Positions 13,789 through 47,565 of a stretch of 55,309 bases of DNA are shown in pieces. The stretch lies in the IMG/VR virus record IMGVR_UViG_3300030107_002626, positions 1 to 55,309 of that record, one strand, 5' to 3'. Each line of letters starts with the position of its first letter. Position 1 is the first letter of the stretch. Source of the stretch: a virus (lineage: Duplodnaviria; Caudoviricetes). The position numbers and the translations under genes were made by a program. The notes under the pieces are model-generated. The model had not been told where the DNA came from. It did not search any database and saw only the letters and a program-made list of their open reading frames with translations.

Positions 13789-16700
13789 ATGGATGTCAGG
13801 CTTCCGAATGGTGTTCTGGTTACGAATGTTCCAGATGATATTTCTCGCGATGAACTTGCGAGGGTGTCCATAAAGAACAACATTGCTTCAGCGTCAGATT
13901 TTGAAGACTTCTTTGCTGAGCAAAGGACGGTATCTGGTCAAGCGACAGAGTTTCTTAAAGGCGTCCCTAGAGGATTTGCCAACTCATTCTTAACAGCAGG
14001 CGAAGGTATCGCTGAGTTAGCTGATGCCGCGACCAACGCTGTCGGCATGGATGACCTCATTGATTCCGGTGAGGAGAATGAACTTGTAAGAGCTTCCCGA
14101 GAGGGACGCAACTTTATCAATGAACAGCTTGGATCAGATGTTGCCTACAACGATACTTGGACGACCAAGTTTGGTGAAGGCATCGGATCGTTTGCTTCGT
14201 TCTTCACTCCTGCGGGGGCCCTAAGAATTGCTGGCTTGGCCGGGAAAGTAGTCCCCAAGCTGGGTGGGATGGGTGCTACAGAGGCTGCAGTAACAGGAAC
14301 TTTAGCTGTTGGCACTGGGTCTGGAGAGCAGGCACAACGAGTGCAGGCTGCAAAAGATCGAGGACTTGATGTATCTCAAGGTGAAGAGGATCTAGCAATA
14401 TTAGGGGGCGCAGTTGTTGGTTTGTCAGAGCTTGCCCCTGTAAACAGGTTGCTTAGTCGAGTCTCTAAGACAGCAGATGCTCAGTTTAGGAAGAATTTAT
14501 CTGACCAACTTAAGGGTGCGTTGCTGACAGGTGCGGCAGAAGGGACTCAGGAAGTTGTTGCAAGCATTGCTCAGGATGCCATTGAGCGAGGCATCTATAA
14601 CGAAAACCTGCCAAGCAATGAATCTCTACTTGATGACTTTACTGTTGGTGGCGCAATAGGTACGAGTGCGGATCTGGTACTTAATGCTGTTGCTGGAAGA
14701 AGAAAGAATCTTGAAGGCGAGATAACGCTAGAGAAAGAAAGGGAGGCAAGGGCAAGAAGAAGCAAGTTAATAGAAGATTCTGCCCAGAAATTGACTGCGG
14801 CTCAGTCTGCTCAGGCTGCTCAAGCAGAGCCGAGAGTTGAGCCGGAAGTAGGTGCGCGGGTAGACCCTTCTCAGATACTCCCCCCTGATCCAGATCAGAT
14901 CGGCCCTACAGGGCTTGGAGCCCCCAACAGAATAGTTCTGGCTACCGACATGGAAGGCAACTCCTTCCAAGCAGAGGAGCGTACAAAGACTCTTAGATCG
15001 AAGGGGGAGTCTAAAGAAGTTAAGTACATCCTAGCCCCGGAAGAAGATGGCACGTTTGTCGAAAAGGTATTGTCTGTTGATGGGGTTCAAAATCCTCAGT
15101 TAGACCTCTCGATTAATGAGATTCAGGCACCCCCGGAATCGTTCGTTGAGGCAAGACCTACAGACGAGACCGCTGCCTATGGTCGGCATATCGCCAGAAC
15201 GATGGGCGATAACTTTGACTTTGAACCCGGTAGCTTTTCTGTAAAGCAAGAGGGTCTTGATAGAAACGGGATGCCTCAGTTCAGGGTAGTTGATTCCAAG
15301 GGAGACAACTACGGAACAAATCTTCCCTCTTATGAGGAGGCAGTAAAGCTCGCCGGGGTTCTAAACGACGAGATCATAGACAGGAATATTATCAATGGAT
15401 TGGTAACAATTCTGGATATTTCTGATCAGTCCCTGTCTCCAGAAGCCACCAGAACAATGATGCTCTATGGTTTCAGGGCGCTTCATCCAGATGAAAACAC
15501 ATACACCATAGCTGAAGTTAACAGTGCGGCAGGTACGACAATTGCTGAGGGGTTCAGCGAAAACAATTATGACGCCAATGGTAAAAGCGTCTTAAAAGAG
15601 ATGATTGCTCTGGGCACGTCTCCCCGCAAAATGACTGCTGCCCAGAGGATAAATGCTAAGCGTCTTCAGCAAGGTCTACCAGAGACAACAACGTTTACTG
15701 TTCAAGAGGCTAAGTCAGTTCTTGGAAAGAACTTCGGAAAGCTTGCTGACAAACCCAGCGAGATTGAAACAGAGACGTACACAACAAGGAAGCTCAAGAA
15801 GGGCAGAAACAAAGGTAACTTTGTAGTTGTTAGTTCTTCTGGAGAGGTTATCAATTCAAGGCCAGCAACTGCGCTAGAAAAGCAGCAGGCAAGAGAAGCT
15901 GGCAAAAGGGCTCCCTCTAAGATCAAGTTGGTAACTATGGGCGAGGCCCGTAAGTATGCCAACGTTCTCAATAAGAACAAAGACATTGGCCTTGTTGACG
16001 AGTCTGTTTTTTCAGAAAAAGAAGTAAACATTTCTCTAGTTCAAAGCCTGCTGAGAAGCAAGAATATTTCGTCTCCAATAGGTTCTCCTGAAGTCAGGAC
16101 TCTGGCCGAACTATTTACTGGCGTCTCGGCAAAGGGCAGGAAAAAGATTTCAGATTTTTCTCCTGCTGAGCTTAAGGTTTTCTATCAAAAGCTGAGGTCT
16201 CTTCCGAGGTTTGACTCTCCTACAAACCTTGTAGATCTCAAACTAAAGCCTTATTCCAGAGCGCAGTTCCAGCAGGGCGTTGAGTCGGCCAAGATTTCCC
16301 CAGCCGAGGGATCAATAAAAGATTACATTGCCTCTGAAGTAGGGATAGATACTTCCACAGAGCGGGGGCAAAGGAAGCTTGACGCATTGATGTCTGACTT
16401 AGAGAGTCAGGGATCATTCAGGAAAGACGAACAGATTCAGGAGGAGGTCGAGACTCCTGTACTTGCCCTGCCCGGGCCAGATGATTTTCAGGTAAAGCTT
16501 CAAGCTGCTGCTGAAGCGGCTATGGATAAGGTTGGCCTGAAAGATGTCGGCGTAAATATTGGACGCGCATTAAATAATGCTCTCAGGAACGCTGAAGGGG
16601 AGATTGTCTACGGAGTTAGAAGGAGGCTTCCGGGGGATGACCCGGACTCAACCATCTTTTTGGGTGGCGACAGCGATATTGTTGTAGAGACATCTCCTGA

Positions 16701-19700
16701 TCAGTCAGTAGAGGGATTCTATTCTCCGTATGTTGGTCAAATATTTGCAGCGATAGATCGTCTTCCTGCAGGCATGACGCCTGAGCAGCAGCAAGATTAT
16801 TTGATCGGCATTATTAATCATGAACAGATCCATGCAATGCGAGAGCTTGATCTGTTTACTGATAAAGAGTGGAAGCTTTTGTCGGGAATCGTTGCCAAGC
16901 GAAAGAACAGCAACGGAGTCACCTATTTAGATCAAGCTCGCAAAGACTACAGTGGGAGTCTTCCCTCTGTTCAGATCGAAGAGGCCGTTGCTGAATTAAC
17001 CAAAGACGCCAGAAAAGATTCCTCAGTTGTATCGGGCAAACCAAAGAATCTGCTGAACAGAATATCTGATTTCTTTGAGAGGCTTCGTAATTTCCTTCGG
17101 CTTAATGGCTTCCAGAGCTTTAGTGGAATCGTTGAAAGTATTGAGTCAGGTGAGATTGGTGGCCGTGAGCGCGGAGAGACAACTTCTACGACTGTTTACG
17201 CTCCTACACCTACCTCTACAGCGACTCGGACGACCCGTACCGGAGTAATAAGAACGTTCAGGGATGCAGAGCAAGAGGCCGAGTTAAGAGAAAGGATTCA
17301 GGGGGCTGCTGCCCGTGGTCCGTCCGGCGCTCAGCCAGACTTTTATGATCCCAACCGGCAGGCTCAAGATGATGAGCAAGAGACTGCGGTAGCTGATAAG
17401 GCAAGTGTAAGGGAAATAAAGACTAGAGTTCCTCTTCCTGAAGAACCTGCTCCTGTCCTTCCCATTGGGCCTGTTGAACAGGCTCTTATTGATTTGCTTT
17501 CTAAACATAGCTCTCCAACATCTAATCAACTAGGAAAGATTTCGGGTGCCCCTGCTCCCCGAACAAAGAAAACCCGTAGCGGGAGACGCTTAAAGAATAA
17601 GTTAGATGCGGATGTAAGGCCGACATCTATGTCCGAGCTACGAAAAATGGCGAGGATCGGTTTAGAAAGCAGCAATAACCTTAAGTGGTACGATGATTTT
17701 GGGAAGGGGATTCTGAGTATTGTCGGTGACGCCAATATGGCAGAAGCGTCTGTGATATTTGGAATCACATCTCAGCAAAATTCTCCAGAACAAAACCTTG
17801 CCGAAACGCTGCACATCATGGCAGTAGCAAGAGCCTTCAACCCGGTAAAACAAAAAAATGAATTTATATCTGCCTTGCGTAATGGAAGGAGGCCGGGTGG
17901 AAGCAAGCTGAAAATCAGTGGCGATCAAATAAATAGGATCGTCAGACTGTACAACGAAGGGTTTGCTGATGCTGGATTAAAGACATCCACTTATATGCAG
18001 ATGATTCAAGACAGAGCGGCCAATATATTTAATCCTTTCAGCGTTCAAGACGTACACATGGCTAGGGTCTTTGGGTTCAAAAGAAAGAAGGTTGACCCTA
18101 AGACCGGCAACGTAGTTGATGACTCTAAAATTCCTACGGATACAAATTATCGTTACGCTCAGTTCTTAACGAGTAAGCTTGCTGAGGAATTTGACTTAAC
18201 TCCAAATCAAATGCAGGCAGCTTTGTGGTTTTATGCCAAGAAAAATCTTAGCCCAAAGAAAGGTGGAAGCCCGGGAACATGGGAGTCTTCAAGAAGCAAA
18301 TCTCAACCAGAGATAGAACAGCTTTTGAGCTTAGAGAAGGCTGGATACCTCACGAAAGACAGGCCGCTTACTGAACCCCTTCTAAGTCCGGTCAAGGCTG
18401 CAAACAAGATTGCAACAAAGTCAGTAGCGTTTTCAAATACTTTGCAGAATGAAGATTTGTTAGAAGTTGCTAGGTTGCGTGCGCCTAAATCGGTGTTCTC
18501 AGCAAATCCCGGTAACAAAAGAGGTTATGGGTTTCCGAATGAGACAGAGCTTGCGGATGTCATTGAGTTTAATCGTGATGCAGTTGATGTCATCACAGAT
18601 GATGACGGGCAGATTCCATTTATCCGAGAGCTTGGTTTGCCGCATGAGATTCAAGTTGGGTTTGGTACTTATGAGGGGTTGGAACCAAATATCACCGTTC
18701 GCTTAATTGGTGGCACTCCTCGGCAAGCATCCTTCGTTTCTAATATTTTAGGCGATGCCTTATTGCAAGACGCCGCAATCATGGCAACTCCTGCTTTTGG
18801 ATCAGGGTCGCAGGTCGGTGTTGCCTTTCAAAAAGAAGATGGCAGCAATTTTGAAGTAGAAGATTTGGCGATAATTTCTGAGGCAGTAAACCCAGAAAAA
18901 GATGAGTACGGTCTAAACTTTACTCAGGTCACGCCAGATGTAATTGCCTTTATAGACGGCAGAGTCTACGATGAAAAGATAACATACAACGAAAAGCAAA
19001 TGCTTCCTGAGTTTATTGAGTCTCTCAGGAGTAAGATTCCAGAAAGTATTGGCCTCAACATGGGGGCTTTCTACCAAGAGGGTGATTATTTTGAGTCGAA
19101 AGACTACAAGAGAAATATTAAGCAGATTGGGAGTGAAGGAACTGTCCCCGGATCATCCGATATACTCGGCAGGCTCGATGATACGCTTTACAAACCGTTC
19201 TGGGACCACTACACAGCGACAGTCAAAAGGTTCGGATTCGATCCGAAAGAAAAAGAAAGACCCCGACCCGACCTAGATCAAGAAGGCAGAGAAGTAAAGA
19301 TAGAACCTGTTGGCGATGAATACTCTTTACTTGCCAACAGATTCTCTATCAGCGCCTCTCAGGCTAACTACGCAGTAGAGCAGAATGAGTTATCTGCGCT
19401 TGATGCCTCATCAGGCACCATGCCCAGATATAGTTTTACTGCTGCACCAGAATCTCAGTACGTTGCTCAAAATCCCGATCAATCTGACTACGCAGACCCG
19501 GTCCCCCTTGATAGGTATTCAAGGGCAAATACTCCCGACCTAGATCCTGAAGAGCAGTCTTTAATATCCGGCATCGTTACGTCTCCCCCAGAGAATGAGA
19601 CGCCGGGGCAGACGTATATGTCTGTTACGGGTGACAGCAAGCTTAGTTATTTCCTTGGCAAAGCTAAGCAAGGATTTATAAACAGGTACGCTCGTCTTGA

Positions 19701-22164
19701 AAAACTGAATCAAGTTCCTCAGCTTCGTGGAAATCTTGCAGACACTAGTAGTATTGCTGCCGCCCTGATGGCAGACAGGTCTAAAGGAATCCTCGCCTCG
19801 GCAATTAAGTCTGGAGCTATTAGCTATGAAGGGGGCGTAACCAAGGTTCAAGAATTTGTGCATAACGGCAAGTCGTATCGTGGCTTGCTTGAGGTTATGG
19901 CACCCCTATTTGATAACCAATACGGTAAATCTCTTGAAGAGATAGCTCAGGCATATGCAATCTCTATGCGTGCCGAAAGGCTTCGGGCGAAAGGGATACG
20001 CACTCCGGTAGAAGAAGGTGACTTAGATCAGATCAATGAGATCGTTGATCGCTACGTTAATCCTGAGACTGGGGAATCAATAGTTAAAGAATGGTATTCC
20101 GCTTGGCAGGCATACAACAACAACACGATTGAGTTCCTGAGAAACACAGGCGTGTTGGATGAGCAGACCGCAGAAGATTGGCGGGATATGTCTGACTATG
20201 TGCCGTTCTATAAGCAGGCAGAAGGGCAAGAGTTAGGCGGGAGATACCCTAAAATATTTTCTGGCCTTACAGCAGCCGCAGAGTTCAAGGAGTTAACAGG
20301 CGGCGAGAAAGCGATCAACGTTCCTCTCATGGAGGCAATAACCAGAAACCTCTCAATGGCTATTGAGATGGGCATGAAGAATGTTGCCCAGCAAAGAATA
20401 ACCAGAGACATGGTGAAGCTTGGCCTCGCCAGAGAAGCGCCTCGCGGCAGATCTGGATTGCCGACAGTTAAGTTCCGAGTTGATGGAAAGACTCTGGAAT
20501 ACATTATTGCTGACCCGCTGGTTTATGAGTCAATGCAGGCGCTATCGGATGGTGACCTGACCCAGACGATGATTAAGTATCTGGGTATGCCAGCTAATCT
20601 GTTGCGAGAAACTGTGACAAGAGACCCCGGCTTCATGTTAGTCAACATGCTTCGGGATACGTTGTCGGCTTGGACAACATCTGGATCAAGCTTTACTCCA
20701 GTCGTAGATACCCTAAAGGGTTTTGCTGACGGCATGGATGAGCTTGAAAGGTTTGGAGTTGTTGGTGGATACGACTTCACTAATGACCCAAAGGATGTGG
20801 TTAAGTTCTCGGAGAGAGAAGCCGCGAAGAAAGGCATTAAGATGAATGCCGATGGTGGTAGCGCGGCAATATTCAAGCCTTTTACTGCTATCTGGGACGC
20901 TCTTGGTAACGCCACAACTAGGTCGGATGCTGCCACAAGGAATGCTGTATACGAGGATGTCCTTGCCAGAACAGGGAACGAGGCTGAGGCTGCGTTTCAG
21001 GCATTAGAAGTAATTAACTTCTCAAGGCGTGGGACTAACCCGCTCATGCGGGTTATTACTGCTGCGATTCCTTTCTTAAATGCCAGAATGCAGGGTCTTG
21101 ATTTGTTCTACCGTGCCTACACTGGCAACTATACGGCGAACAAGGCTCTCAGTAAGAGCCAAGCTATGCAGTCTGCAGTAGTAAGAAGCAGCATGCTTGC
21201 GGCCCTGACTGGCTTTTACTATATGCTGGTCAGTGATGACGAGCAGTACAAGAACCAGTCGGATGAAGTCAAAGACCTAAACTTTATTATTCCCACGGCA
21301 TCAGGAACGCCGGTCAAGCTGCCAATCCCGTTTGAAGTGGGGCTCTTGTTTAAGACGCTGCCAGAAAGAATCCTAGATGCCACTGTTGGGGACACATCTA
21401 CAAGGGAGGCAAGGGAGAGCGCCCAAAGAGCTATATTGAATACGTTTGAAGTGAACCCCTTGGGGATTCAGGCGTTTGCTCCTTTAATAGAGGCGTCACT
21501 GAATCATAACTTCTACACAGGTAGAGACATTGTTCCTTATTACGTTGATCAAAATACTGTCGCAGGACTACAGTCTAATTTGGGGACATCTGAGGTCGCG
21601 AAGTTCGTAGGCAATGAGCTAAACATTAGCCCCATGAAAGTTGACCATGTCATGTATGGTTATCTTGGAACCATTGGGGCCTACGTTCTTGATGCCGTAG
21701 ATCATGTTATGAAATCTAGTTTGGCTACTGGAACCAAAGAGTCAGTTCTGCCTGCTAAGAAGATCACTGAGTATCCAGTAATTAAGAGGTTCTTTGCACA
21801 AGAGTTTGGCTCTGGCCTGCAAGAGGATTTTTACAGGGTTAACCGAGAGGTTAATAAGATTGTTGGATCTATCAACAAGCTGAGTAGAGAGGGACGGCTT
21901 GATGAATTGGAGGCTATGATCAAAGCCAAAGGTCACCTGTATGACCTAAATAAAGATACCAACTACATTGCGAACCAGTTGTCGAAGCTTAGGAAATACA
22001 GGAAATCAATTGAGTCTGCTGACCTTGATGCCGAAACAAAAAGAGAACTGCTTGATCAGGTCAGGGAAGAAACAAACTACATCTTGGAAGTTGTTCCTGA
22101 GTTAAAACGTCAGGCAGATTTGCCTGCGTTTGGTGGCAGGCTCATGGAGAGGATAAGCCTCTAG
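13789..22164 (+). CDS. Large polyvalent (injected) protein, 2791 aa
   Basis: HEQIH..EEAVAE zincin motif, central WY..SQQ..DVHMAR..QAALW domain, C-terminal LPD38-like region (IPFLNARMQG, PIPFEVG, NFYTGRDIVP). Confidence 0.8.
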   Translation: MDVRLPNGVLVTNVPDDISRDELARVSIKNNIASASDFEDFFAEQRTVSGQATEFLKGVPRGFANSFLTAGEGIAELADAATNAVGMDDLIDSGEENELVRASREGRNFINEQLGSDVAYNDTWTTKFGEGIGSFASFFTPAGALRIAGLAGKVVPKLGGMGATEAAVTGTLAVGTGSGEQAQRVQAAKDRGLDVSQGEEDLAILGGAVVGLSELAPVNRLLSRVSKTADAQFRKNLSDQLKGALLTGAAEGTQEVVASIAQDAIERGIYNENLPSNESLLDDFTVGGAIGTSADLVLNAVAGRRKNLEGEITLEKEREARARRSKLIEDSAQKLTAAQSAQAAQAEPRVEPEVGARVDPSQILPPDPDQIGPTGLGAPNRIVLATDMEGNSFQAEERTKTLRSKGESKEVKYILAPEEDGTFVEKVLSVDGVQNPQLDLSINEIQAPPESFVEARPTDETAAYGRHIARTMGDNFDFEPGSFSVKQEGLDRNGMPQFRVVDSKGDNYGTNLPSYEEAVKLAGVLNDEIIDRNIINGLVTILDISDQSLSPEATRTMMLYGFRALHPDENTYTIAEVNSAAGTTIAEGFSENNYDANGKSVLKEMIALGTSPRKMTAAQRINAKRLQQGLPETTTFTVQEAKSVLGKNFGKLADKPSEIETETYTTRKLKKGRNKGNFVVVSSSGEVINSRPATALEKQQAREAGKRAPSKIKLVTMGEARKYANVLNKNKDIGLVDESVFSEKEVNISLVQSLLRSKNISSPIGSPEVRTLAELFTGVSAKGRKKISDFSPAELKVFYQKLRSLPRFDSPTNLVDLKLKPYSRAQFQQGVESAKISPAEGSIKDYIASEVGIDTSTERGQRKLDALMSDLESQGSFRKDEQIQEEVETPVLALPGPDDFQVKLQAAAEAAMDKVGLKDVGVNIGRALNNALRNAEGEIVYGVRRRLPGDDPDSTIFLGGDSDIVVETSPDQSVEGFYSPYVGQIFAAIDRLPAGMTPEQQQDYLIGIINHEQIHAMRELDLFTDKEWKLLSGIVAKRKNSNGVTYLDQARKDYSGSLPSVQIEEAVAELTKDARKDSSVVSGKPKNLLNRISDFFERLRNFLRLNGFQSFSGIVESIESGEIGGRERGETTSTTVYAPTPTSTATRTTRTGVIRTFRDAEQEAELRERIQGAAARGPSGAQPDFYDPNRQAQDDEQETAVADKASVREIKTRVPLPEEPAPVLPIGPVEQALIDLLSKHSSPTSNQLGKISGAPAPRTKKTRSGRRLKNKLDADVRPTSMSELRKMARIGLESSNNLKWYDDFGKGILSIVGDANMAEASVIFGITSQQNSPEQNLAETLHIMAVARAFNPVKQKNEFISALRNGRRPGGSKLKISGDQINRIVRLYNEGFADAGLKTSTYMQMIQDRAANIFNPFSVQDVHMARVFGFKRKKVDPKTGNVVDDSKIPTDTNYRYAQFLTSKLAEEFDLTPNQMQAALWFYAKKNLSPKKGGSPGTWESSRSKSQPEIEQLLSLEKAGYLTKDRPLTEPLLSPVKAANKIATKSVAFSNTLQNEDLLEVARLRAPKSVFSANPGNKRGYGFPNETELADVIEFNRDAVDVITDDDGQIPFIRELGLPHEIQVGFGTYEGLEPNITVRLIGGTPRQASFVSNILGDALLQDAAIMATPAFGSGSQVGVAFQKEDGSNFEVEDLAIISEAVNPEKDEYGLNFTQVTPDVIAFIDGRVYDEKITYNEKQMLPEFIESLRSKIPESIGLNMGAFYQEGDYFESKDYKRNIKQIGSEGTVPGSSDILGRLDDTLYKPFWDHYTATVKRFGFDPKEKERPRPDLDQEGREVKIEPVGDEYSLLANRFSISASQANYAVEQNELSALDASSGTMPRYSFTAAPESQYVAQNPDQSDYADPVPLDRYSRANTPDLDPEEQSLISGIVTSPPENETPGQTYMSVTGDSKLSYFLGKAKQGFINRYARLEKLNQVPQLRGNLADTSSIAAALMADRSKGILASAIKSGAISYEGGVTKVQEFVHNGKSYRGLLEVMAPLFDNQYGKSLEEIAQAYAISMRAERLRAKGIRTPVEEGDLDQINEIVDRYVNPETGESIVKEWYSAWQAYNNNTIEFLRNTGVLDEQTAEDWRDMSDYVPFYKQAEGQELGGRYPKIFSGLTAAAEFKELTGGEKAINVPLMEAITRNLSMAIEMGMKNVAQQRITRDMVKLGLAREAPRGRSGLPTVKFRVDGKTLEYIIADPLVYESMQALSDGDLTQTMIKYLGMPANLLRETVTRDPGFMLVNMLRDTLSAWTTSGSSFTPVVDTLKGFADGMDELERFGVVGGYDFTNDPKDVVKFSEREAAKKGIKMNADGGSAAIFKPFTAIWDALGNATTRSDAATRNAVYEDVLARTGNEAEAAFQALEVINFSRRGTNPLMRVITAAIPFLNARMQGLDLFYRAYTGNYTANKALSKSQAMQSAVVRSSMLAALTGFYYMLVSDDEQYKNQSDEVKDLNFIIPTASGTPVKLPIPFEVGLLFKTLPERILDATVGDTSTREARESAQRAILNTFEVNPLGIQAFAPLIEASLNHNFYTGRDIVPYYVDQNTVAGLQSNLGTSEVAKFVGNELNISPMKVDHVMYGYLGTIGAYVLDAVDHVMKSSLATGTKESVLPAKKITEYPVIKRFFAQEFGSGLQEDFYRVNREVNKIVGSINKLSREGRLDELEAMIKAKGHLYDLNKDTNYIANQLSKLRKYRKSIESADLDAETKRELLDQVREETNYILEVVPELKRQADLPAFGGRLMERISL

Positions 22165-29978: not shown

Positions 29979-31022
29979 TTATTGATCCTTATTGTCCCGT
30001 AGGACGAGGTCGGTTTTTAGGATGCCAATTTCGGCGTTACCGGGTGCACAATCCTGCACCCATGTGCGGGTCTTGCCTTTGTTGGGGCCTGACTTGAGTG
30101 GCTTTGCGAAGTGTCGCCAATGCCCTGCTCGGAAGTGCTTACGCACCGTGCCGGGTGCCCGGGCAGTTGATTCGCCGCGAGGATCAGGCTCCGGGCTAAG
30201 GTCGCGCTCGATCACAACGTGTTCAAACTTTGGATACTTGTGCCCGTGAACAGGCTTAATCTTCCGCTCGGATGAGGGCTTCAGTCCCCGGTAGGTGGTG
30301 GTCTTCGCCGTGCGGCTGTTAATCATCTCCCACCAACTGAGAAACATATCCACGAGACTAGGGAGCAATTTTCCTGCGTCATCTAAGGGATTGCCTAGCC
30401 ACGCTGAAATGTAGGTCGGCTCGATGTCATCTGTGATTTTGAAGTGCACCTCGACTGGTAGCGGCCAAATGTCTGGCGACTGATACACGTAGTAGTTGAC
30501 GGAGATGAATTGCTCATCGGGCTCGACGCTCAGTTCTGGATAGCCTTCTTCGACAGTCCGATACTCCGCGAACATCAAGACCGTGGTTTCGCCATTCTCG
30601 CTGTGGAGGGTGGTGCTGATCGTGACCCACGGAAATGGCAAGCGCAGCGGCGTGGTTGGGATCGTGCTTGGGTCTCTATCCCAGCAATGATCTTTCGACA
30701 GGCTTGGAGTTGTGTACTTCATCCCGCTTCGGACGGCGCAGGCAACAGCGTCTTCAGTCTGAAAGCTCATCCACTTGATTGCCTCAGATTCGGCATGGCC
30801 TCTGTCTCGATGTGAAACAAACTTCATGTGAACCCAATAGTCTGTGATGCTTTTAAGCATCCGGCCAAAGGGCGTTGCGTCATCCACAATGATTGTTTCG
30901 ATGTCGCCATCGCTGGCAGTGATGGCCTTGATCTCAAACTCTGCCATCTTCGCGATCTGGTCATGCAGTCTCATCAGCGAATGGAACTCTCGCCCCAGAC
31001 CGACATCTTTTTTCCTGCTCAT
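29979..31022 (-). CDS. Hypothetical phage protein with C-terminal HxRxGHWR motif
   Basis: 347 aa; RKHFRAGHWRHF..TWV; CTAGGAGG RBS. Confidence 0.8.
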   Translation of the reverse strand: MSRKKDVGLGREFHSLMRLHDQIAKMAEFEIKAITASDGDIETIIVDDATPFGRMLKSITDYWVHMKFVSHRDRGHAESEAIKWMSFQTEDAVACAVRSGMKYTTPSLSKDHCWDRDPSTIPTTPLRLPFPWVTISTTLHSENGETTVLMFAEYRTVEEGYPELSVEPDEQFISVNYYVYQSPDIWPLPVEVHFKITDDIEPTYISAWLGNPLDDAGKLLPSLVDMFLSWWEMINSRTAKTTTYRGLKPSSERKIKPVHGHKYPKFEHVVIERDLSPEPDPRGESTARAPGTVRKHFRAGHWRHFAKPLKSGPNKGKTRTWVQDCAPGNAEIGILKTDLVLRDNKDQ

Positions 31023-31042: not shown

Positions 31043-31109
31043 GGATTCCACGGAACCCACCGTAGCGGTGGGTTTTCGCCCGGTTTCCCTCCGGGTCTCG
31101 TCAGCGTGG
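31043..31109 (-). ncRNA. Hammerhead ribozyme, type I (HHR5)
   Basis: ccacg CUGACGA g-a-cccgg agggaaa ccggg-c GAAA acccaccg cua cggugggu UC^ cgugg aaucc; cleavage 31053/31052. Confidence 0.9.
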
Positions 31110-31110
31110 T

Positions 31111-31254
31111 TCATGCTTCGATGATTTGAAAATCAAAGATCTCCCGAATCTTTTGAACTGCCTCCAAGCACTCGCTGTAGCTGCCTTGAATGTCTGACTC
31201 AAACCATTCTGAGTGCAAGTAGTCCCGCTCGCGAAGGTTAACGACGTAATACAT
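31111..31254 (-). CDS. Small hypothetical protein (47 aa, not in ORF track)
   Basis: GGAG RBS; MYYVVNLRERDYLHSEWFESDIQGSYSECLEAVQKIREIFDFQIIEA*; stop 1 nt before HHR5. Confidence 0.6.
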   Translation of the reverse strand: MYYVVNLRERDYLHSEWFESDIQGSYSECLEAVQKIREIFDFQIIEA

Positions 31255-31335
31255 ATTTGATGCTCCATATTTATGGGGGGGTTGCCCCCCCAGTAAGTGA
31301 TAGAAAAGTTTTCTGCAAGGCTTTGGGAAAATCTA

Positions 31336-32745
31336 TCAGTCGACGTGAATGATCTCCCCGAACTGCTCGCACCCGTAAAAATACGGATCGCTGAGATTGG
31401 TAACCCAAAACACAGGATAATCCGGTGTCTCAAAGTCCCTTCCTCCTGCGGGATCATTGGGGCCGACCCAACCCTCGCCGTCTGTAAAGTAGATCAGCGC
31501 ATGCAGGTCGATCTCTTCCGCATCAACCCAGTTGAACACTGGGGTGAAGGACGTGCCGCCGCCACCGTAGAACGCAATCTCGACATCCTCGCCGCGCTCG
31601 TACTCTTGAGTGTGCTGCACCGAGTCGTCGCAATAGACAACATGCGTTTTAATCGGATCGATCTCCGCAACAATGTCGTTGATGTGAGAAGCGTAGACGG
31701 CTAACTCATCATCGGTGAGTGACATAGATGTATCCACGGCAACGACCAGCACGCCGTTAGGCTCCTGCTGAGAGTCCGGCAGGATCAGACCCTGATGAAT
31801 CAGGCGTCGATCTGGCGTCGAGTAGCATTCCTCGCCGGGCACGGTATCGTGCAAGGCACCGGCCAGAATCTCATGCCAAGGCTGCGGGTCACGGCGTTGT
31901 GCGTCGAGAACGTTGCGTAACCATCCTCCGCTGCCATGACCCTGATGCTTGTCATGTTGGCGCTGGACCTGTGCTGCCTGTTGATTGAGCGAATCAATCT
32001 CGACCTGCTCGATGATCTGCTCGTCCTCGCTGAGCGCATTGCCGTCATCGTTGACTCCGTCGAGGACTTCACCCCAACCACCTGAGCCGCTCGGCGTATC
32101 ACCGGAACCATTGTTCGGCTCGCCATCGGGATCGCCTGAACCGTCGACTGGATACCCTCCGGGATACCCTCCGGGGCCACGGGGCTTGCCCTCGCCATCA
32201 TCGTTACCCGATTGGCCGTCAGACGGATCGCCTTCAGACTGCTCGGAATCAGCGCCAGACTGCTCGGTCTCGACGGGGTGATGGGCCTGCTCATTACCCG
32301 GTTGGTTGCCGGGCTGATCGCCGGGCTGGTTACCGGGCTCATCTTCCGCAGCCTTTTGATTGGCCGCGAAGTGACGCTCGGCGGACCAGTTATCCTGCCC
32401 GGGCTCAGGGTACACGCCATCTGCAGGCAGCACGAATCCGGCCTTGCGTAAGAGACCATTGATCGCCTGATCGCAAGCGATGTTCCACGCCTTTTGGTCT
32501 CGGGTGCCACGGCGCAGGTGGTGCCCGTTGTTGACGTGCATGCATTCATGAGCCAGCACGCCAGCAGTCTCGGCAACGCTCAGGGTCTCGACCCATGCCG
32601 GATTGAAAAACAACGACTTGCCGTCAGTCGCCATAGTCTGGGTGACCGTCTCATCAGCCCGGAACGCGAACCGATGCAGTCGGACTGCGAAGTAGGGATG
32701 GTCAGTGACCATGCGCTTTTTGGCTTTGGCGATTTTGTTATCCAT
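31336..32745 (-). CDS. Metallopeptidase-VWA protein (DUF2201-like)
   Basis: TMATDG, HECMH zincin motif, WNIACD..IN, acidic linker, VAVDTSMS MIDAS, GGGGT, YFTDG. Confidence 0.9.
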   Translation of the reverse strand: MDNKIAKAKKRMVTDHPYFAVRLHRFAFRADETVTQTMATDGKSLFFNPAWVETLSVAETAGVLAHECMHVNNGHHLRRGTRDQKAWNIACDQAINGLLRKAGFVLPADGVYPEPGQDNWSAERHFAANQKAAEDEPGNQPGDQPGNQPGNEQAHHPVETEQSGADSEQSEGDPSDGQSGNDDGEGKPRGPGGYPGGYPVDGSGDPDGEPNNGSGDTPSGSGGWGEVLDGVNDDGNALSEDEQIIEQVEIDSLNQQAAQVQRQHDKHQGHGSGGWLRNVLDAQRRDPQPWHEILAGALHDTVPGEECYSTPDRRLIHQGLILPDSQQEPNGVLVVAVDTSMSLTDDELAVYASHINDIVAEIDPIKTHVVYCDDSVQHTQEYERGEDVEIAFYGGGGTSFTPVFNWVDAEEIDLHALIYFTDGEGWVGPNDPAGGRDFETPDYPVFWVTNLSDPYFYGCEQFGEIIHVD

Positions 32746-32763
32746 TTGATGTCTCCTAGTTGT

Positions 32764-32831
32764 TGGATTCCGCAGAGGCCCACCTCCCGGGGCCTTTCAC
32801 GCTGGGGTCCACCCAGCACTCATCAGTGCGG
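32764..32831 (-). ncRNA. Hammerhead ribozyme, type I (HHR4)
   Basis: ccgca CUGAUGA gugcuggg uggac cccagcgu GAAA ggccc cgggaggu gggcc UC^ ugcgg aaucca; cleavage 32775/32774. Confidence 0.87.
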
Positions 32832-33707
32832 TTAGTCGAAGAAACCCGAAAGCTTGCTCACGATCTCCTTGGCCGTGTCAGCGGCCTGCTGGCGCTTGCC
32901 CTCGTCTTCGCGCAGCACCTGCGGGTCCAGATCGCGAAGCTTAAGAAACAGGTCGTTCGACACTGCAGTCAACGCCGGGTCACCCGTCAGGTTGAGGCCG
33001 GGCAGTGCTTCAGCGAGCCGCTCGATTGCCTCGACCGTACTGTCAGCGAACTTGCTCGCACGCTTAGCGCCGTCAGCCTTCGTGCCGTGCCGTTCCATGC
33101 CCTCGATGAACGTGGTCAGCACCTCCGCAACACGCTCACTGACGACCTTGGCCCCGGCTTCGACCTTGGCTGCAACATCCCGCTCGACCTGCTGCCGGAT
33201 CGCGTTCACGCGCTGCTGCGGCAGGTTTACGCGAATGTCATCGCCAGAGGGCAGCGGCATCAACTTATAGCTGATGCTGTAGCGGTTGACGATCTCGGTA
33301 ACGGACGGGTAGTCGTTCTCATCGAAGGCGGCACCCAATCGAATCCTGTCCGCTTCGATGACGGCAGGCCATGTGTCCTGCAGTTCAGACTTCAGTTCCT
33401 CAAGACGGTCAGCTTTTTTCCGCAGAGCAGCCTCAAAACGGTCGAGATTGTCGACGGTGATGAGGTGAACGCCGTCATCCCAAGGCACGGTCCAAAGTCG
33501 CAAAACCGTGTTCCCAACTTGTCCGATGATCTTGTTCAACTCTTTAACCACGGCCTGTTTCGCTAGGCGTTTGGTGACGCGCAGATAACCATCTGCCGCA
33601 GACTTGTCGAAGGTCACCTGATCAGTGATCTCACGGTCGGTGATGCTGTTGTTCCATTTGGTGCAGCGCACCTTGACGAGCATCGCGTTGGTTTGAATCT
33701 TATCCAT
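32832..33707 (-). CDS. DUF3150-like protein (291 aa)
   Basis: Start reset to ATG 33707 after CTAGGAG; TVPWDDG, DYPS, PLP motifs; between the AAA and VWA genes. Confidence 0.7.
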   Translation of the reverse strand: MDKIQTNAMLVKVRCTKWNNSITDREITDQVTFDKSAADGYLRVTKRLAKQAVVKELNKIIGQVGNTVLRLWTVPWDDGVHLITVDNLDRFEAALRKKADRLEELKSELQDTWPAVIEADRIRLGAAFDENDYPSVTEIVNRYSISYKLMPLPSGDDIRVNLPQQRVNAIRQQVERDVAAKVEAGAKVVSERVAEVLTTFIEGMERHGTKADGAKRASKFADSTVEAIERLAEALPGLNLTGDPALTAVSNDLFLKLRDLDPQVLREDEGKRQQAADTAKEIVSKLSGFFD

Positions 33708-33718
33708 TGTTGTTTCTC

Positions 33719-34816
33719 CTAGATTGTTAAATGTTGAGTGTCGAGTTTGAACTGCACGAAGGACTCGCACGCCTTCAGGTCGCTGTCACGATTGCCTGCG
33801 ATCATGAAGAACACTGACAGCAGTTCCTCGTTGATCCGCTTCAGGTAGCTGGCTGCGTTGTCGATGTTTCCGATGTCGCAACGCTGCGCGAGGATCATGG
33901 TGATGGCGTAATGCGTCGCCAGTTCCCGCTCACCCGGCACGTCAACGCTGTCGGGGTCTGAGAGGATCAGCCCAGCGTCCGGGAGTGCCCTGACGATGCT
34001 CAGGAACCCGGCGAACTCACTGCCAGCACCAACGCCCACTGCACCGTTGATCGCGATCTGCTCAAGCAATCGAGGCAGACCGGATCGAAGGATCTCGCTC
34101 ACTGCCTCCCAAGTCCTAGGCGTTGCCGCCGTGACGTGACCCTTTGGTATGCCGCCGTCCGGGTATTCGTGGAGCATGCCTGCCTGATCAACCTCGCCGT
34201 TGCCGTCGAGGACAGGACGGCCACGCGCTGCTAGGAAGGCGATGACTTCAGGTGCCCAACCTGCAGATGTGGCGTACTCGATGAACGGCGTGAGCGCCGG
34301 AACGATGTTCAGGTGCGTGCCAAAGCGCGTCAGCAGGGCCGCATCCTGTCGTCCGTGTACACCTGCCCCATCGCATGGGCGATTGCTCGCGACGATCACT
34401 CGCCACCCGGGAGGCAGGATGTAGTCACCGAGGCAACCATCATTGACCAGTTGGTAGCACGCCGCTTGCGACTGCTGAGCGCCGAGCAGCATCTCATCCA
34501 TGAGGAGCAGACCAAACTCACCGTCACGCTCGACGCGAGGTAGCCACCCCGGTAGCTTGAACTCGGTGAAATCGCCGACGATGTCGGGAATGCCGCGAGT
34601 GTCTACTGCTTGGAGTTGAGACAAACGGGCATCGATCAGGCCCCACTGCTGCCCGGTCTGCTCGCTCAGGCTCGCAACCACGGACCGAACGATGCTGGAC
34701 TTGCCGACCCCAAACGGGCCCCACAGGAACACGGGGCGTATGTCGCGAGGCACAAGTGCCTCGATGATTGTCGCGGCCTGTTCAAGGGTCGCGTCAGGAA
34801 TGTTTGAAAATGACAT
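33719..34816 (-). CDS. MoxR-like AAA+ ATPase (365 aa)
   Basis: Start reset to ATG 34816 after CTAGGAG; Walker A GPFGVGKS, Walker B LLLMDE, VASNR, ALLTRF, TPRTW. Confidence 0.9.
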   Translation of the reverse strand: MSFSNIPDATLEQAATIIEALVPRDIRPVFLWGPFGVGKSSIVRSVVASLSEQTGQQWGLIDARLSQLQAVDTRGIPDIVGDFTEFKLPGWLPRVERDGEFGLLLMDEMLLGAQQSQAACYQLVNDGCLGDYILPPGWRVIVASNRPCDGAGVHGRQDAALLTRFGTHLNIVPALTPFIEYATSAGWAPEVIAFLAARGRPVLDGNGEVDQAGMLHEYPDGGIPKGHVTAATPRTWEAVSEILRSGLPRLLEQIAINGAVGVGAGSEFAGFLSIVRALPDAGLILSDPDSVDVPGERELATHYAITMILAQRCDIGNIDNAASYLKRINEELLSVFFMIAGNRDSDLKACESFVQFKLDTQHLTI

Positions 34817-34836
34817 ATGAATCTCTCCTAGTTTTT

Positions 34837-34898
34837 GGATTCCACAGACGCCCGTCAGGGCGTTTCGGCCAGTGTCCCGCTGGCACTCATCAGTGTGG
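34837..34898 (-). ncRNA. Hammerhead ribozyme, type I (HHR3)
   Basis: ccaca CUGAUGA g-u-gccag cgggaca cuggc-c GAAA cgccc ugac gggcg UC^ ugugg aaucc; cleavage 34847/34846. Confidence 0.92.
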
Positions 34899-34907
34899 CT
34901 CAACCCG

Positions 34908-35336
34908 TCAATACCAGCGATTAAATCCTGAGAGAGCGGCGTTGATTGGGTAGTCTTCCTGCTTGTTGCTGGGGGCGACCTTGCGGAGGATCGCGTTGAT
35001 GCGACGTGGATCGCCCAGCACCACGTTGTCGCAGCGCGGGTGCTTCGCGAAAAACTCAGCGTGCCGCCGTTCCATCGCGGCATTAGTCAGGCTGGTGCTG
35101 CCAAATGTGTAGCCGTTGATCGTCTCAGGTTGCGGCAGATGCTTGCGTGCCTCGACAATCCCCAGCGCCGCACGGCGCTCAGCGGTGCGCGGCACAATGA
35201 ATTTTTCCCAGCGGCGAGGCCCCTCAATAAACTCGCTGCGCTTCGCCGCGAAGCCTTCGCGCTTCAAGATCTCCAGCGCTCGCTGCTCGGCTGCCGTGAC
35301 CTTTAAGGTCCGCCCGTTCAGTGTGATGGTCTTCAT
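34908..35336 (-). CDS. Hypothetical protein
   Basis: 142 aa; ACTAGGAG RBS; flanked by HHR2 and HHR3. Confidence 0.8.
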   Translation of the reverse strand: MKTITLNGRTLKVTAAEQRALEILKREGFAAKRSEFIEGPRRWEKFIVPRTAERRAALGIVEARKHLPQPETINGYTFGSTSLTNAAMERRHAEFFAKHPRCDNVVLGDPRRINAILRKVAPSNKQEDYPINAALSGFNRWY

Positions 35337-35354
35337 GATGTTCTCCTAGTTTTC

Positions 35355-35417
35355 GGATTCCACAGACGCCCCGGGTGGGGCGTTTCGACTGGTGTCCATC
35401 CAGTCTCATCAGTGTGG
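35355..35417 (-). ncRNA. Hammerhead ribozyme, type I (HHR2)
   Basis: ccaca CUGAUGA gacugg auggaca ccaguc GAAA cgcccc accc ggggcg UC^ ugugg aaucc; cleavage 35365/35364. Confidence 0.93.
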
Positions 35418-35418
35418 G

Positions 35419-35961
35419 TTAGATTGCGGCATACGCCGGGAAGCTTTGCTCTTCTCTGAGAAGGTCTTCCCAGACCGAGTCGATCAAGCGATGCCCCAGC
35501 GCAGCGTTGAAAAAGTCGAGCAGTTCACGAGCGTTTCCGCCGTGTCTCTCGGCGATGATGTCAAATGCTCTGACGACTCCTCTCTGAGCAGTGCTCCGTG
35601 AACAGTTGTACTCACTGGCAGTGAGCGCCGTGAACTGCTCAATGACGAACGAATTGAGTTGCCGGTACGCCAGCAGTGAATCATTGGGCCGACCTTTGTA
35701 GATAAGTTTGGCAAGCACCTGCAGCCTGCGGCGGTTCCGCTCGTAGGTGGCCTGACCGTCGTTCTCATAGCTGCCCTCGACCCACAGGCTGAGGCAGTCG
35801 GCTGCGCGGGTCGTCTGAGCCGCTTGGGTGAGTGCACTGAACCCGACCAGTTCACGCTCGGGCCGGGTGGCACCTGCACTCTTCAGATCGGCAGTGTGAG
35901 AGGCATGCGCCCATTCGATGTCTAGTACCAGATCGTTGGCGATGGTTTGGGTGACGTTCAT
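35419..35961 (-). CDS. Hypothetical protein (first gene of the operon)
   Basis: 180 aa; ACTAGGAG RBS; flanked by HHR1 and HHR2. Confidence 0.8.
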   Translation of the reverse strand: MNVTQTIANDLVLDIEWAHASHTADLKSAGATRPERELVGFSALTQAAQTTRAADCLSLWVEGSYENDGQATYERNRRRLQVLAKLIYKGRPNDSLLAYRQLNSFVIEQFTALTASEYNCSRSTAQRGVVRAFDIIAERHGGNARELLDFFNAALGHRLIDSVWEDLLREEQSFPAYAAI

Positions 35962-35980
35962 GATGTTCTCCTAGTGGTTT

Positions 35981-36033
35981 GCGTTTCGGCCTGCCGTGGC
36001 CCTCGTCAGTGCATCGGCATTAGATGCATACGC
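35981..36033 (-). ncRNA. Hammerhead ribozyme, type III (HHR1)
   Basis: gcg UA^ ugcauc uaaugcc gaugca CUGACGA g-ggcc acggca ggcc GAAA cgc; loop I UGCC complementary to loop II GGCA; cleavage 36029/36028. Confidence 0.88.
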
Positions 36034-36221
36034 TGTACATGCTCTCGCATGTACCGGGGCACTCTGGGTGACATGAGGTCACGCCCCGCGACGGTGTGTA
36101 CGCTTTACGCCTCTCCGGCATTCTTACCGGGTCAAAGGGTGCGCCGGATTCAAACCGGAGGGCCGAGGCCCCATCAAATAGCAGTGATTAAGTAAGTGAG
36201 TAAGTAATGAATGAGATTCGA

Positions 36222-36250
36222 AAGATACACACCAATCACCCTACATGCAA
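36222..36250 (-). promoter_or_regulatory. Putative sigma70-type promoter of the ribozyme operon
   Basis: TTGCAT-17 bp-TATCTT on the minus strand. Confidence 0.55.
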
Positions 36251-36607
36251 CACCTGTACAACAAATAGTTAACAGTCACGGTATGCCGTGCGATTGGTCA
36301 GGATCAGAGCGAATAAATTTGCCTATATATGTAGTAAGACTTAGGGCGTCCGTAAGTTGTTGATTCATAAGGCGTATTGCGTGTAAGGCGTTTTCTGTCA
36401 CTCCAGATACCAGTGCAAGGGTGATGGCTAAAACCGCTTAGAACGGCTCTGAGTGCGTCTGTGGCGTGTCAAGTGTTTGGCGAAAATATCTGCATCTTGA
36501 GTGCATGTCCTGCGTTGTATGTCAACGTTGACCCGTCTCATGTTTCTATGCTGGGGCCTTGGTGCTGGATAGAATCCCGGCATTAGCTATTGCCGGACCA
36601 ATGACCA

Positions 36608-45944: not shown

Positions 45945-46883
45945 ATGGCAATTTCAAGAGCGCAAATGCTCAAAGAACTCCTGCCGGGGCTTAACGCTCT
46001 TTTTGGTTTGGAGTATGAAAAGTACGAAGATGAGCACACTCTCCTTTATGAGACTGAAAGCTCTGATCGTTCTTTCGAGGAAGAGGTGAAGCTGTCAGGG
46101 TTTGCTGCTGCGCCGGTTAAAGCTGAAGGTGCTGCCATCAGCTATGACTCCGCACAGGAATCTTTCACGGCTCGTTACAATCATGAAACCATCGCTATGG
46201 GTTTCGCCATTACCGAAGAGGCTATGGAAGATAACTTGTATGACTCTTTGTCTGCTCGTTACACCAAGGCTCTTGCTCGGGCTATGGCCTACACCAAGCA
46301 AGTTAAGGCGGTTAACCCGCTTAACAATGGCTTCACCAATAGTTACCAGTCAGGTGACGGGGTAAACCTGTTTACTGCATCTGGTGACGGTGTAACTGGT
46401 GGTGACGGTCACCCTCTCGTCAATGGCGGGAAAAACAGCAATCGGCCTTCTACGGCTGCTGACCTAAACGAAACGTCTCTGGAGAATGCAATTATTGATA
46501 TTGCAGCCTTCACTGACGAACGTGGTCTGTTGATTGCTGCTCGTCCTCGTCGCCTGATCGTTCCTCCCGCTTTGATGTTTACGGCAGATCGACTGCTTGA
46601 AACAACTCAGCGTGTTGGCACGGCAGACAATGATCTCAACGCTATCCGCAACATGGGTGCAATCCCCGAGGGATACAGCGTTAATCATTACCTGACGGAC
46701 AGCAATGCTTTCTTCCTGATTACGGACGTACCTAACGGTATGAAGCATTTTGAGAGGACCGAACTGGAAACCTCAATGGACGGAGACTTCGACACTGGCA
46801 ACGTGCGCTACAAAGCTCGCGCTCGTTACAGCTTCGGTGTGTCTGACCCGCTGGGCATCTACGGATCACCCGGCGCAAGCTAA
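45945..46883 (+). CDS. Major capsid protein
   Basis: 312 aa; MAISRAQMLKELLPGLNALFG..DGVNLF..LIVPP..RYSFG.SD; strong RBS and downstream terminator. Confidence 0.88.
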   Translation: MAISRAQMLKELLPGLNALFGLEYEKYEDEHTLLYETESSDRSFEEEVKLSGFAAAPVKAEGAAISYDSAQESFTARYNHETIAMGFAITEEAMEDNLYDSLSARYTKALARAMAYTKQVKAVNPLNNGFTNSYQSGDGVNLFTASGDGVTGGDGHPLVNGGKNSNRPSTAADLNETSLENAIIDIAAFTDERGLLIAARPRRLIVPPALMFTADRLLETTQRVGTADNDLNAIRNMGAIPEGYSVNHYLTDSNAFFLITDVPNGMKHFERTELETSMDGDFDTGNVRYKARARYSFGVSDPLGIYGSPGAS

Positions 46884-46952: not shown

Positions 46953-47040
46953 TTGACCGCTTGTTCTTTTAATATCTTTCCCCTGACTGTAATGTTCCAA
47001 CTAGAGCATTAGCAGACACTAGCCAAGACAGGAGAAACAC

Positions 47041-47565
47041 ATGGCTAATACCACCTTCACCGGAGCAGTCCGGTCTGAAAACGGCTTTGATGTCGTTTCA
47101 AAAAACAGCACAACCGGAGCGTTTACCACATCCTTTACCCTTGACGGGTCTGGTATGCAGGTTACCCCGGTCTCTCTGGCCGACGCTGCCTCCACAACAT
47201 TGACCGCTGCTGTAAATGGTGGCCGTATAAATCTGGTTGGCGACAACAGCCAAGACAGCACTTATACGCTGCCAGCTCCTGCTGCCGGGGTCTTTTATCG
47301 TTTTGTTTATGCAGGCGCTGCGGCAGATGCTACTGATGCGCTTATTGTTACCCCCGGTAACACAAACTTTTACAAAGGCGGCGTAACCTTTTTGGATACG
47401 GACAACGAAGTAAGTGTTGTGTTCTCCGATGGGAACTCTAATAGCAGCATTCAGATTAATGTTCCTGCAGCTTTCGACATCACGATCATTGGTTTGGATA
47501 CTACCAATTACCAAATCTTTGGGACCGTGACTGGCGCAACTGCTCCCGCGTTTGCTGATCAGTAA
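47041..47565 (+). CDS. Hypothetical structural protein
   Basis: 174 aa; MANTTFTGAVRSENGF, TLPA; beta-rich. Confidence 0.75.
   Translation: MANTTFTGAVRSENGFDVVSKNSTTGAFTTSFTLDGSGMQVTPVSLADAASTTLTAAVNGGRINLVGDNSQDSTYTLPAPAAGVFYRFVYAGAAADATDALIVTPGNTNFYKGGVTFLDTDNEVSVVFSDGNSNSSIQINVPAAFDITIIGLDTTNYQIFGTVTGATAPAFADQ

Follow-up and report, generated by a model that had tools for sequence, protein, structure and literature searches.

Can the transcript of a phage operon cut itself into gene-sized messages by means of ribozymes that lie between its genes? This question is raised by a 55,309-nucleotide (nt) viral sequence (Duplodnaviria; Caudoviricetes; IMG/VR record IMGVR_UViG_3300030107_002626, positions 1 to 55,309; hereafter the window), in which an original prediction, made without database searches, had placed five hammerhead ribozymes on the minus strand along one operon. 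The record is 97% complete (55 kb), and its terminase, portal, major head, primase/helicase, Sak and RusA genes identify it as a phage. The operon is encoded on the minus strand from 36.1 kb to about 29.6 kb and adjoins the primase/helicase, RusA, exonuclease and Sak genes. On the basis of their core, stems, tertiary pairing and covariation, we conclude with high confidence that the five elements are true hammerhead ribozymes, for which self-cleavage is predicted. They are probably functional on a single transcript of the operon, which would be divided into five units by protein-independent cutting.

We screened the window with a descriptor that combines CUGANGA and GAAA segments, the A15.1-U16.1 pair, an H17 residue and three stems of at least 4 base pairs (bp), with no more than one bulge or mismatch. 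From the 59 CUGANGA cores on both strands, exactly five matches were obtained, all on the minus strand. These are the five elements of the original prediction, each with the full hammerhead core and three formable stems, and the 5' ends that cleavage would create are identical to those given there (Table 1). The originally given ranges of elements 2-5 extend 5-6 nt further in the 3' direction than those of the descriptor, taking in a conserved AAUCC tail. In a control with 300 dinucleotide-preserving shuffles, the mean number of matches was 0.073 and the maximum was two, with at least one match in 20 of the 300. The catalytic core is matched exactly in all five elements (C3 U4 G5 A6 N7 G8 A9, G12 A13 A14, A15.1-U16.1 and H17). 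Two of them also pass a version of the descriptor that allows perfect stems only, and the other three have a one-base bulge in stem II. The pattern CTGANGA..GAAA..GGAATCC occurs four times in the window, as compared with no occurrence in any of 100 shuffles.

Table 1. Hammerhead elements and genes of the minus-strand operon in the window, and type II elements of related loci (last line). Leader lengths are counted from the predicted new 5' end to the start codon; aa, amino acids; ORF, open reading frame.
Feature	Coordinates	Strand	Support or family	Cleavage triplet; predicted new 5' end	Remarks
Hammerhead 1	35981-36033	-	descriptor; type III model R2, 59.8 bits, E 9e-18	GUA; 36028	type III (stem III open), operon leader
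Hammerhead 2	35354-35417; type I part 35360-35417	-	descriptor; type I model, 73.2 bits	GUC; 35364	3' tail UCCG (35357-35354) pairs with loop II UGGA; 28-nt leader before ATG at 35336
Hammerhead 3	34837-34898; type I part 34842-34898	-	descriptor; type I model, 70.1 bits	GUC; 34846	tail AAUCC; 30-nt leader before ATPase ATG at 34816
Hammerhead 4	32765-32831; type I part 32770-32831	-	descriptor; type I model, 50.2 bits	CUC; 32774	tail AAUCC; 29-nt leader before ATG at 32745
Hammerhead 5	31043-31109; type I part 31048-31109	-	descriptor; type I model, 47.2 bits	UUC; 31052	tail AAUCC; 30-nt leader before ATG at 31022
Cistron 1	35419-35961	-	no family		180 aa
Cistron 2	34908-35336	-	no family		142 aa
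AAA+ (MoxR-like) ATPase	33719-34816	-	phrog_1297, E 2.6e-55		365 aa
291-aa ORF	32832-33707	-	no family		
DUF2201 gene	31336-32745	-	phrog_1314; Pfam DUF2201_N, E 1.6e-41; DUF2201, E 4.7e-18		469 aa; putative metallopeptidase domain and VWA-like domain
47-aa ORF	31111-31254	-	no annotation		
347-aa ORF	29979-31022	-	no family		first gene of the distal unit
Type II elements	L008:1377-1443; L009:5911-5980, 3006-3075; L017:5904-5972; L050:5916-5981; L053:4277-4343; L007:3403-3470		RF02276		

A 'distant' blastn search of a 5.3-kb region against a phage collection gave no match, and homologous loci were therefore collected through the AAA+ ATPase of the operon. There are 239 ATPase homologs at E <= 0.001. 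The ATPase as a single query found no relative in viral and genome contigs, and a profile of 31 ATPase sequences led to 80 viral and 70 cellular loci (150 loci and 1.5 Mb in all, most of them covering 6 kb on either side or less). L-numbers denote the loci of relatives, among which L151 and L152 come from one metagenome scan. The descriptor matched 62 times in 42 of the 150 loci, as compared with about two matches expected by chance in 1.5 Mb (an extrapolation from the shuffle rate of the window). Sixty-one of these matches are on the ATPase strand, and all 61 belong to loci with an ATPase at least 40% identical to that of the window (L001-L052). The remaining one, an opposite-strand type II match in the cellular locus L133, was taken as a chance match and is the sole match in the 70 bacterial and archaeal loci with distant ATPases (29-41% identity).

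Models of the type I and type III elements were then applied to these sequences. The type I model detects four elements in the window at 47-73 bits and no further copy, the next match having 13.8 bits (E 0.15). Across 81 sources it gives 66 matches at E <= 0.01, all in the sense of the genes. The type III model gives 14 true matches and two cross-matches on type I elements; in the window, its single match beyond element 1 is a cross-match on element 2. A weak alternative register of type III appearance also overlies hammerhead 2 at 35379-35437 (minus strand; 24.6-24.7 bits with type III model R2 and 20.8 bits with Rfam Hammerhead_3). In this register, the 3' strand of stem III could find a pairing partner in a GGCGUA sequence from the terminal part of cistron 1, a match that is probably coincidental.

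The stems of the type I elements covary strongly. In 35 distinct sequences, 97.4% of the stem cells are paired, as against 29.7-42.0% when the partners are slid by 1-3 columns. Two-sided changes occur in 15 of 17 pairs, and none of 500 shuffles reached the observed values. For the type III stems, 97.1% of the cells are paired and 12 of 15 pairs show two-sided changes, although two of the 12 distinct rows are type I cross-matches. Alignments fitted to models favor structure. The low values of the slid controls and the number of pair types speak against the signal being an artefact of this fitting. The catalytic core is invariant except for known tolerated variants. In L051 (5916-5981), U3-A8 replaces C3-G8, a core covariation that is also described in Perreault et al. 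(PMC3088659). Other core variants are a C at position 4 in L045:5920-5984 and a U instead of G at position 10.1, with UGAAA on the other side, in L049:7053-7117 and L006:5914-5976. Taking all sources together, 46 of 48 unique elements have a Shine-Dalgarno sequence and a start codon within 13-77 nt downstream, with a median of 30 nt for type I. The search of related phages that the original prediction had called for returned metagenomic phages with the same elements in the same operon and the same orientation, and its hammerhead assignment is strongly supported by these relatives, by the covarying stems and by the following pseudoknot.

In the type I elements, a near-invariant (U/G)GG is present in loop II, and its pairing partner is a tail that begins 1-2 nt past stem I. 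The pairing is GGA/UCC in the window and its nearest relatives and UGGU/ACCA in another clade, with further variants such as UUGGUUA/UAACCAA (L026, the longest), UUGC/GCAA (L045) and GGG/CCC (L048). A third model, with the tail included, yielded the columns of this pseudoknot for 43 distinct sequences of type I. At pair 26-86, 21 sequences have U-A, 18 have A-U and none is unpaired, and pair 25-87 is G-C in 41. Pairs 24-88 and 23-89 are formed in 39/42 and 33/41 sequences, respectively, and the optional pair 27-85 in 14/42. The helix as a whole has 81.0% of its cells paired. It reaches at least 4 bp in 31 of 36 elements, and none of 1000 permutations of the partners attains the observed mean. 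Different matched combinations of loop II and tail are found within single phages (L005, L045 and L010); thus, the match belongs to each element and does not reflect ancestry alone. At the level of sequence comparison, the loop II-tail pseudoknot of the type I elements is proven by covariation. In hammerhead 1, UGCC in loop I (36019-36016) is able to pair with GGCA in loop II (35995-35992). By eye, type III relatives in L003, L005 and L009 have UGCU/AGCA at the same loop positions, and no pairing between loops I and II is evident in those of L014, L016, L049 and L050. Pseudoknots of this kind have been reported for all three hammerhead types (PMC3088659).

What would these ribozymes do in the operon? 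The ORFs from 35961 to about 29600 are all co-oriented and closely spaced, and a 570-nt intergenic region (36034-36607) separates them from a divergent small-terminase gene. All five elements are in the sense of the flanking genes and are followed by CTAGGAG, and they lie 5' of a ribosome-binding site (RBS), as had been predicted. Elements 2-5 start 1, 9, 0 and 1 nt past the upstream stop codon, within the 0-9 nt of the original prediction. They continue with AAUCC, a spacer of 4-5 nt, ACUAGGAG and the start codon, and take up the entire gap between the stop codon and the next Shine-Dalgarno sequence. The leaders downstream of their predicted cuts are near-identical. The elements delimit units of one, one, two and two ORFs plus a distal block, and the originally calculated fragment sizes of 664, 518, 2072 and 1722 nt plus a distal piece are arithmetically correct. 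There is no hammerhead between the ATPase and the 291-aa genes, and the RBS of the latter overlaps the ATPase stop codon. A scan for terminators gave 14 terminator-like sites, close to the 14.7 expected by chance, and none within the operon was convincing. The sense orientation and the stop-to-RBS position of the elements are compatible with the cutting of a polycistronic RNA into these units.

Further features of the 570-nt region should be mentioned. Two TTGACA hexamers (36525-36520 and 36472-36467, minus strand) lie 53 nt apart and are candidate -35 boxes or operator parts; a promoter scan called a -10 partner for neither of them. A weak TTGCAT-17-TATCTT combination near 36250-36222 was noticed by eye only. 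Furthermore, an 8-bp hairpin (GUACAUGC-GAGA-GCAUGUAC; 36035-36054, minus strand) ends 1 nt before stem III of hammerhead 1 and would lie at the 3' end of the discarded leader fragment.

When folded alone, all five elements form three-way junctions, and four of five do so in the minimum free energy (MFE) structure with 30 nt of context on either side. Hammerhead cleavage produces a 2',3'-cyclic phosphate and a 5'-hydroxyl. Cleavage of the type III element 1 would remove the 5' leader, the ribozyme body remaining on the first mRNA as a structured cap. At each type I element, stems II and III would stay behind as a structured 3' end of the upstream RNA, terminating in a 2',3'-cyclic phosphate; the bodies left there are predicted to be stable (-21 to -28 kcal/mol). 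The downstream RNA would begin with a 5'-hydroxyl and the near-identical 28-30-nt leader that bears the RBS. The loop II-tail pseudoknot would provide the docking of stems I and II that natural hammerheads require at cellular magnesium concentrations. The resulting five units would comprise gene 1, gene 2, the ATPase and 291-aa genes, the DUF2201 gene with the 47-aa ORF, and the distal genes, and the stability and translation of each could be uncoupled from those of its neighbors. We infer co-transcription, cleavage in vivo and an effect on stability and translation.

Several observations weigh against this self-processing of the operon transcript. The Rfam search of the window proposed in the original prediction calls no hammerhead at the gathering threshold. 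In E-value mode, the best matches are to RAGATH-1-hammerhead (RF03152; 29.0 and 26.4 bits against a gathering score of 56.3), and Hammerhead_3 (RF00008) reaches 20.8 bits against 48.5. A gathering score is a curation cut-off and not a biochemical criterion, and the scores stay far under it, mainly owing to a longer stem II and stem II loop in the window elements. With 20.8-29.0 bits against cut-offs of 48.5-56.3, standard annotation would therefore miss all five elements. Stem III of hammerhead 1 has only 4 bp. Hammerhead 4 has a G-U at pair 10.1-11.1, which recurs in 11 of 42 distinct relatives. Element 3 is the one whose MFE structure in context shows a competing pairing, with upstream ORF sequence. 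A sigma-70 promoter scan of 21.5-37.6 kb gave four promoter-like sites, as compared with 9.0 expected, and none in 36034-36607; no promoter was thus found upstream of element 1, and a single transcript remains an assumption. A ribosome terminating 0-9 nt before a type I element would also cover stem I and the core, and this could hinder folding. Finally, the direction of any effect on RNA stability depends on the RNases of the host.

The unmet Rfam thresholds are also what would speak for the motifs being chance matches or inactive relics. Five descriptor matches against 0.073 expected, an invariant core, and stems and a pseudoknot that covary across 43 distinct sequences speak to the contrary, and by these comparative data such a reading is effectively refuted. 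The ribozymes might instead be a device for decay or timing. The new 5'-hydroxyl and unprotected ends would then be exposed to attack by host RNases, so that expression of these genes ends rapidly, or cleavage would be conditional on magnesium, folding or ribosome occupancy and would thus serve regulation. With stop codons 0-9 nt ahead of stem I, translation and ribozyme folding must compete, and the alternative fold of element 3 points in the same direction. In Bacillus, cleavage by the glmS ribozyme leaves a 5'-hydroxyl product that RNase J1 degrades. Regulated cleavage of phage hammerheads was also raised by Perreault et al. (PMC3088659). On the other hand, canonical cores and conserved tertiary pairing mark fast, constitutive ribozymes, none of the 43 distinct type I sequences has a ligand-binding or switch-like extra domain, and the upstream RNA would keep the ribozyme body as a stable structure at its 3' end. 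Thus, we consider a decay or timing device unlikely. Cleavage might also be followed by ribozyme-catalysed ligation, so that the excised units become circular or spliced RNAs. A perfect match does exist between the 5' end that hammerhead 2 would leave and hammerhead 3, in both the stem I strand and loop II of the latter, and seven of 12 distinct consecutive type I pairs are fully cross-compatible. However, the other five are incompatible, among them pairs in L005, L045 and L049, and cross-compatibility is therefore not conserved. Perreault et al. report that they sought such products and found none (PMC3088659). Ligation appears very improbable to us, and the cutting of one transcript into separate messages remains the preferred reading.

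The array varies considerably among relatives. With the type I and type III models together, five matches are found in the window, four each in L049 and L052, three in L005, two each in 21 sources and one each in 22 sources. Five whole related records contain 3, 1, 2, 2 and 0 type I matches, all in the ATPase operon. At the junction directly 5' of the ATPase gene, a hammerhead is present in 46 of 52 relatives. It is of type I in 36 loci, of type III in two and of type II at the Rfam gathering score in five (L008, L009, L017, L050 and L053). In three more (L014-L016), a type II element with canonical core and stems was recognized by eye under the threshold. Thus, all three permutations serve an orthologous junction. 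In total, seven type II elements of the relatives reach the RF02276 gathering score, and five of them are at this junction. The remaining six loci include four without a hammerhead and two, L028 and L042, in which the core may be a variant. In these two (L028 at about 5020-5149 and L042 at about 3475-3603), the sequence ahead of the ATPase gene shows GAAA, hairpins and CUGAACGA or CUGAAUGA, which might represent a hammerhead carrying an extra base in its core, or a different element.

The closest relatives differ from the window in whole segments. L151, with a 94% identical ATPase, carries one element of type III and five of type I, six in all; of the type I elements, four are upstream of the ATPase, and there is no counterpart of hammerhead 5. 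L152 is a 3.1-kb fragment with an 85% identical ATPase and two elements. The number of cassettes upstream of the ATPase is accordingly one in L152, two in the window and four in L151. Homology between the window and L151 ends at 35343, at the RBS after hammerhead 2, and restarts at 34898, the first base of hammerhead 3. The ORFs in between are unrelated (a blastp match of 16 residues only), so that L151 has an unrelated ORF in place of cistron 2. A second replaced segment extends over 31275-31037. Cistron 2 is missing from L152, in which one hammerhead corresponds to elements 2 and 3 of the window alike; relative to L152, the window thus carries one further unit, consisting of gene 2 and a module. 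Homologs of cistron 1 (51-60% identity) are located in a cassette of L151 and L152. Among one another, the four type I cassettes in the window show 69-78% identity over about 91 nt. Homogenization of stem I within genomes is weak, the identity being 0.86 within a source and 0.73 between sources. The stretch from the DUF2201 gene to the 47-aa ORF contains a perfect G7-CAA-C7 hairpin (31275-31291, minus strand) that is not followed by a U-tract. It marks one edge of the segment replaced in L151, where a similar G7/C-run hairpin is retained immediately upstream of a CTAGGAG RBS, and it may have an RNA-stabilising role.

These comparisons fit a gain and loss of genes as units of one ORF and one hammerhead/RBS module. 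One might go further and regard the modules chiefly as DNA-level boundaries of exchangeable cassettes, in which the repeats of about 90 nt support recombination and RNA cleavage has a supporting role by insulating expression. The mutual similarity of the four cassettes, their varying number, the breaks in homology with L151 and the one-to-two correspondence with L152 would all be explained. However, the coincidence of breakpoints with modules is partly trivial, because modules fill the whole intergenic space and surviving breakpoints would fall in them anyway. Furthermore, no recombinase is linked to the modules. The core is under strong purifying selection and the stems show compensatory changes; therefore, the RNA function itself is selected. 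We thus find it rather doubtful that DNA-level exchange is their chief role, and continue to favor cleavage of the operon transcript. As a tentative proposal, the hammerhead/RBS module could nevertheless be a portable unit. Accessory genes would move as an ORF with its ribozyme and RBS through recombination between modules and would be insulated from the upstream RNA, types I, II and III being interchangeable without loss of function. No earlier publication of this cassette-boundary idea was found in the literature searched, a limited collection. If true, arrays of ribozymes would be the phage equivalent of cassette arrays, a single element serving one function at the RNA level and another at the DNA level. 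Exchange of cassettes at the modules, if real, would also connect ribozyme function with the mosaicism of phage genomes.

Outside the operon, two other features of the window were noted. A Mu-gpT-DE RNA motif (RF03012; gathering score 49) is found at 46981-47043 on the plus strand with 50.6 bits (E 8.5e-09). It is flanked by the gene for the major head protein (45945-46883, phrog_371) and the next ORF, at 47041-47565, the start codon of which is included in the 3' end of the motif. The structural gene block contains a single ORF of 2791 aa (13789-22164, plus strand).

The idea of a self-processing polycistronic mRNA is plausible for this operon, judging from its sequence and that of its relatives, but it is not new. 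The original prediction had left room for the novelty of an operon-wide array. However, clustered prophage hammerheads and the processing idea were already described by Perreault et al. in 2011 (PMC3088659). What the present locus adds is a large array (five elements, and six in a close relative) with a type III leader element and type I intercistronic elements, a covarying loop II-tail pseudoknot, all three topologies at one orthologous junction, and gene turnover in module-bounded units. The curated Rfam thresholds miss this whole clade of phage type I and III hammerheads; therefore, such arrays are probably under-counted in viral metagenomes. With five canonical ribozymes of two topologies, near-identical post-cleavage leaders and a covarying pseudoknot, the operon is a compact test bed for the role of phage hammerheads, and natural relatives with two to six elements add to its value.

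The closest known systems are the prophage clusters. According to the main text of Perreault et al. 2011 (PMC3088659), several hammerheads flank single genes or short gene blocks in prophages, the flanked genes vary between arrays, and clustered hammerheads were proposed to process a long phage transcript into gene-length mRNAs. Tandem arrangements are described there for Clostridium scindens, Azorhizobium caulinodans and Agrobacterium tumefaciens (a triple). In vitro, three of the tandem arrangements underwent the expected cleavage, and cleavage was also observed in E. coli for the triple of A. tumefaciens. Those clusters and the window array have in common gene-sense hammerheads of mixed types, pseudoknots that dock stems I and II, and the same proposed role. 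They differ in that the window is an uncultured, near-complete 55-kb phage record, whereas the arrays in PMC3088659 belong to prophages of cultured bacteria, and in the flanked genes (an AAA+ ATPase and a DUF2201 gene as against ardA). As to array size, five elements in the window and six in L151 compare with the triple spelled out in the text of that paper, the figures and supplement of which may list larger arrays or these very sequences. The same paper (PMC3088659) describes HHphage of the haloviruses HF1 and HF2, which lies a few nt 5' of the ORF that comes first in an early polycistronic transcript, with a mapped 5' end no more than 3 nt from the cleavage site. HHphage parallels element 1 of the window as a hammerhead in an operon leader; it is, however, a single, variant, high-salt-dependent ribozyme of an archaeal virus, whereas element 1 has a canonical core and four more ribozymes downstream.

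Later work bears on cleavage and on the position of the ribozymes. By cyPhyRNA-seq, cleavage in cells of Desulfovibrio vulgaris was reported for three type II hammerheads near phage-like genes (PMC8782182). The processing idea is taken up again in a 2019 review, which states that its purpose is still to be defined and calls the role of phage and bacterial hammerheads largely elusive (PMC6765202). Beyond these cited papers, no later in vivo work on phage hammerhead arrays was found in the same limited literature collection. In fungal RNA viruses, a type I hammerhead spans a small intergenic region and cuts a few nt before the next ORF, with the 5' end confirmed in vivo; it is proposed to aid cap-independent translation and is described as lacking the usual loop-loop contacts (PMC13725137). 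This 2026 paper treats the hammerheads of DNA phages as already described (PMC13725137). Compared with those RNA genomes of eukaryotic viruses, the window array is in phage DNA, with a Shine-Dalgarno sequence after each ribozyme and a conserved tertiary pseudoknot.

The window elements share their core and three-way junction with the Rfam hammerhead families (RF00163, RF00008, RF02276 and RF03152), and elements 2 and 5 align with RF03152 over the core, stem I and stem III. In bacteriophage T7, the early polycistronic RNA is cut by host RNase III at structured intercistronic sites, and 3' hairpins stabilise the resulting mRNAs. RNase III cuts double-stranded stems there, leaving a 5'-phosphate and a 3'-hydroxyl. 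The resemblance of the window array to the T7 system, to which the original prediction had likened it, is functional only: the window RNA would cut itself, leaving a 5'-hydroxyl and a 2',3'-cyclic phosphate.

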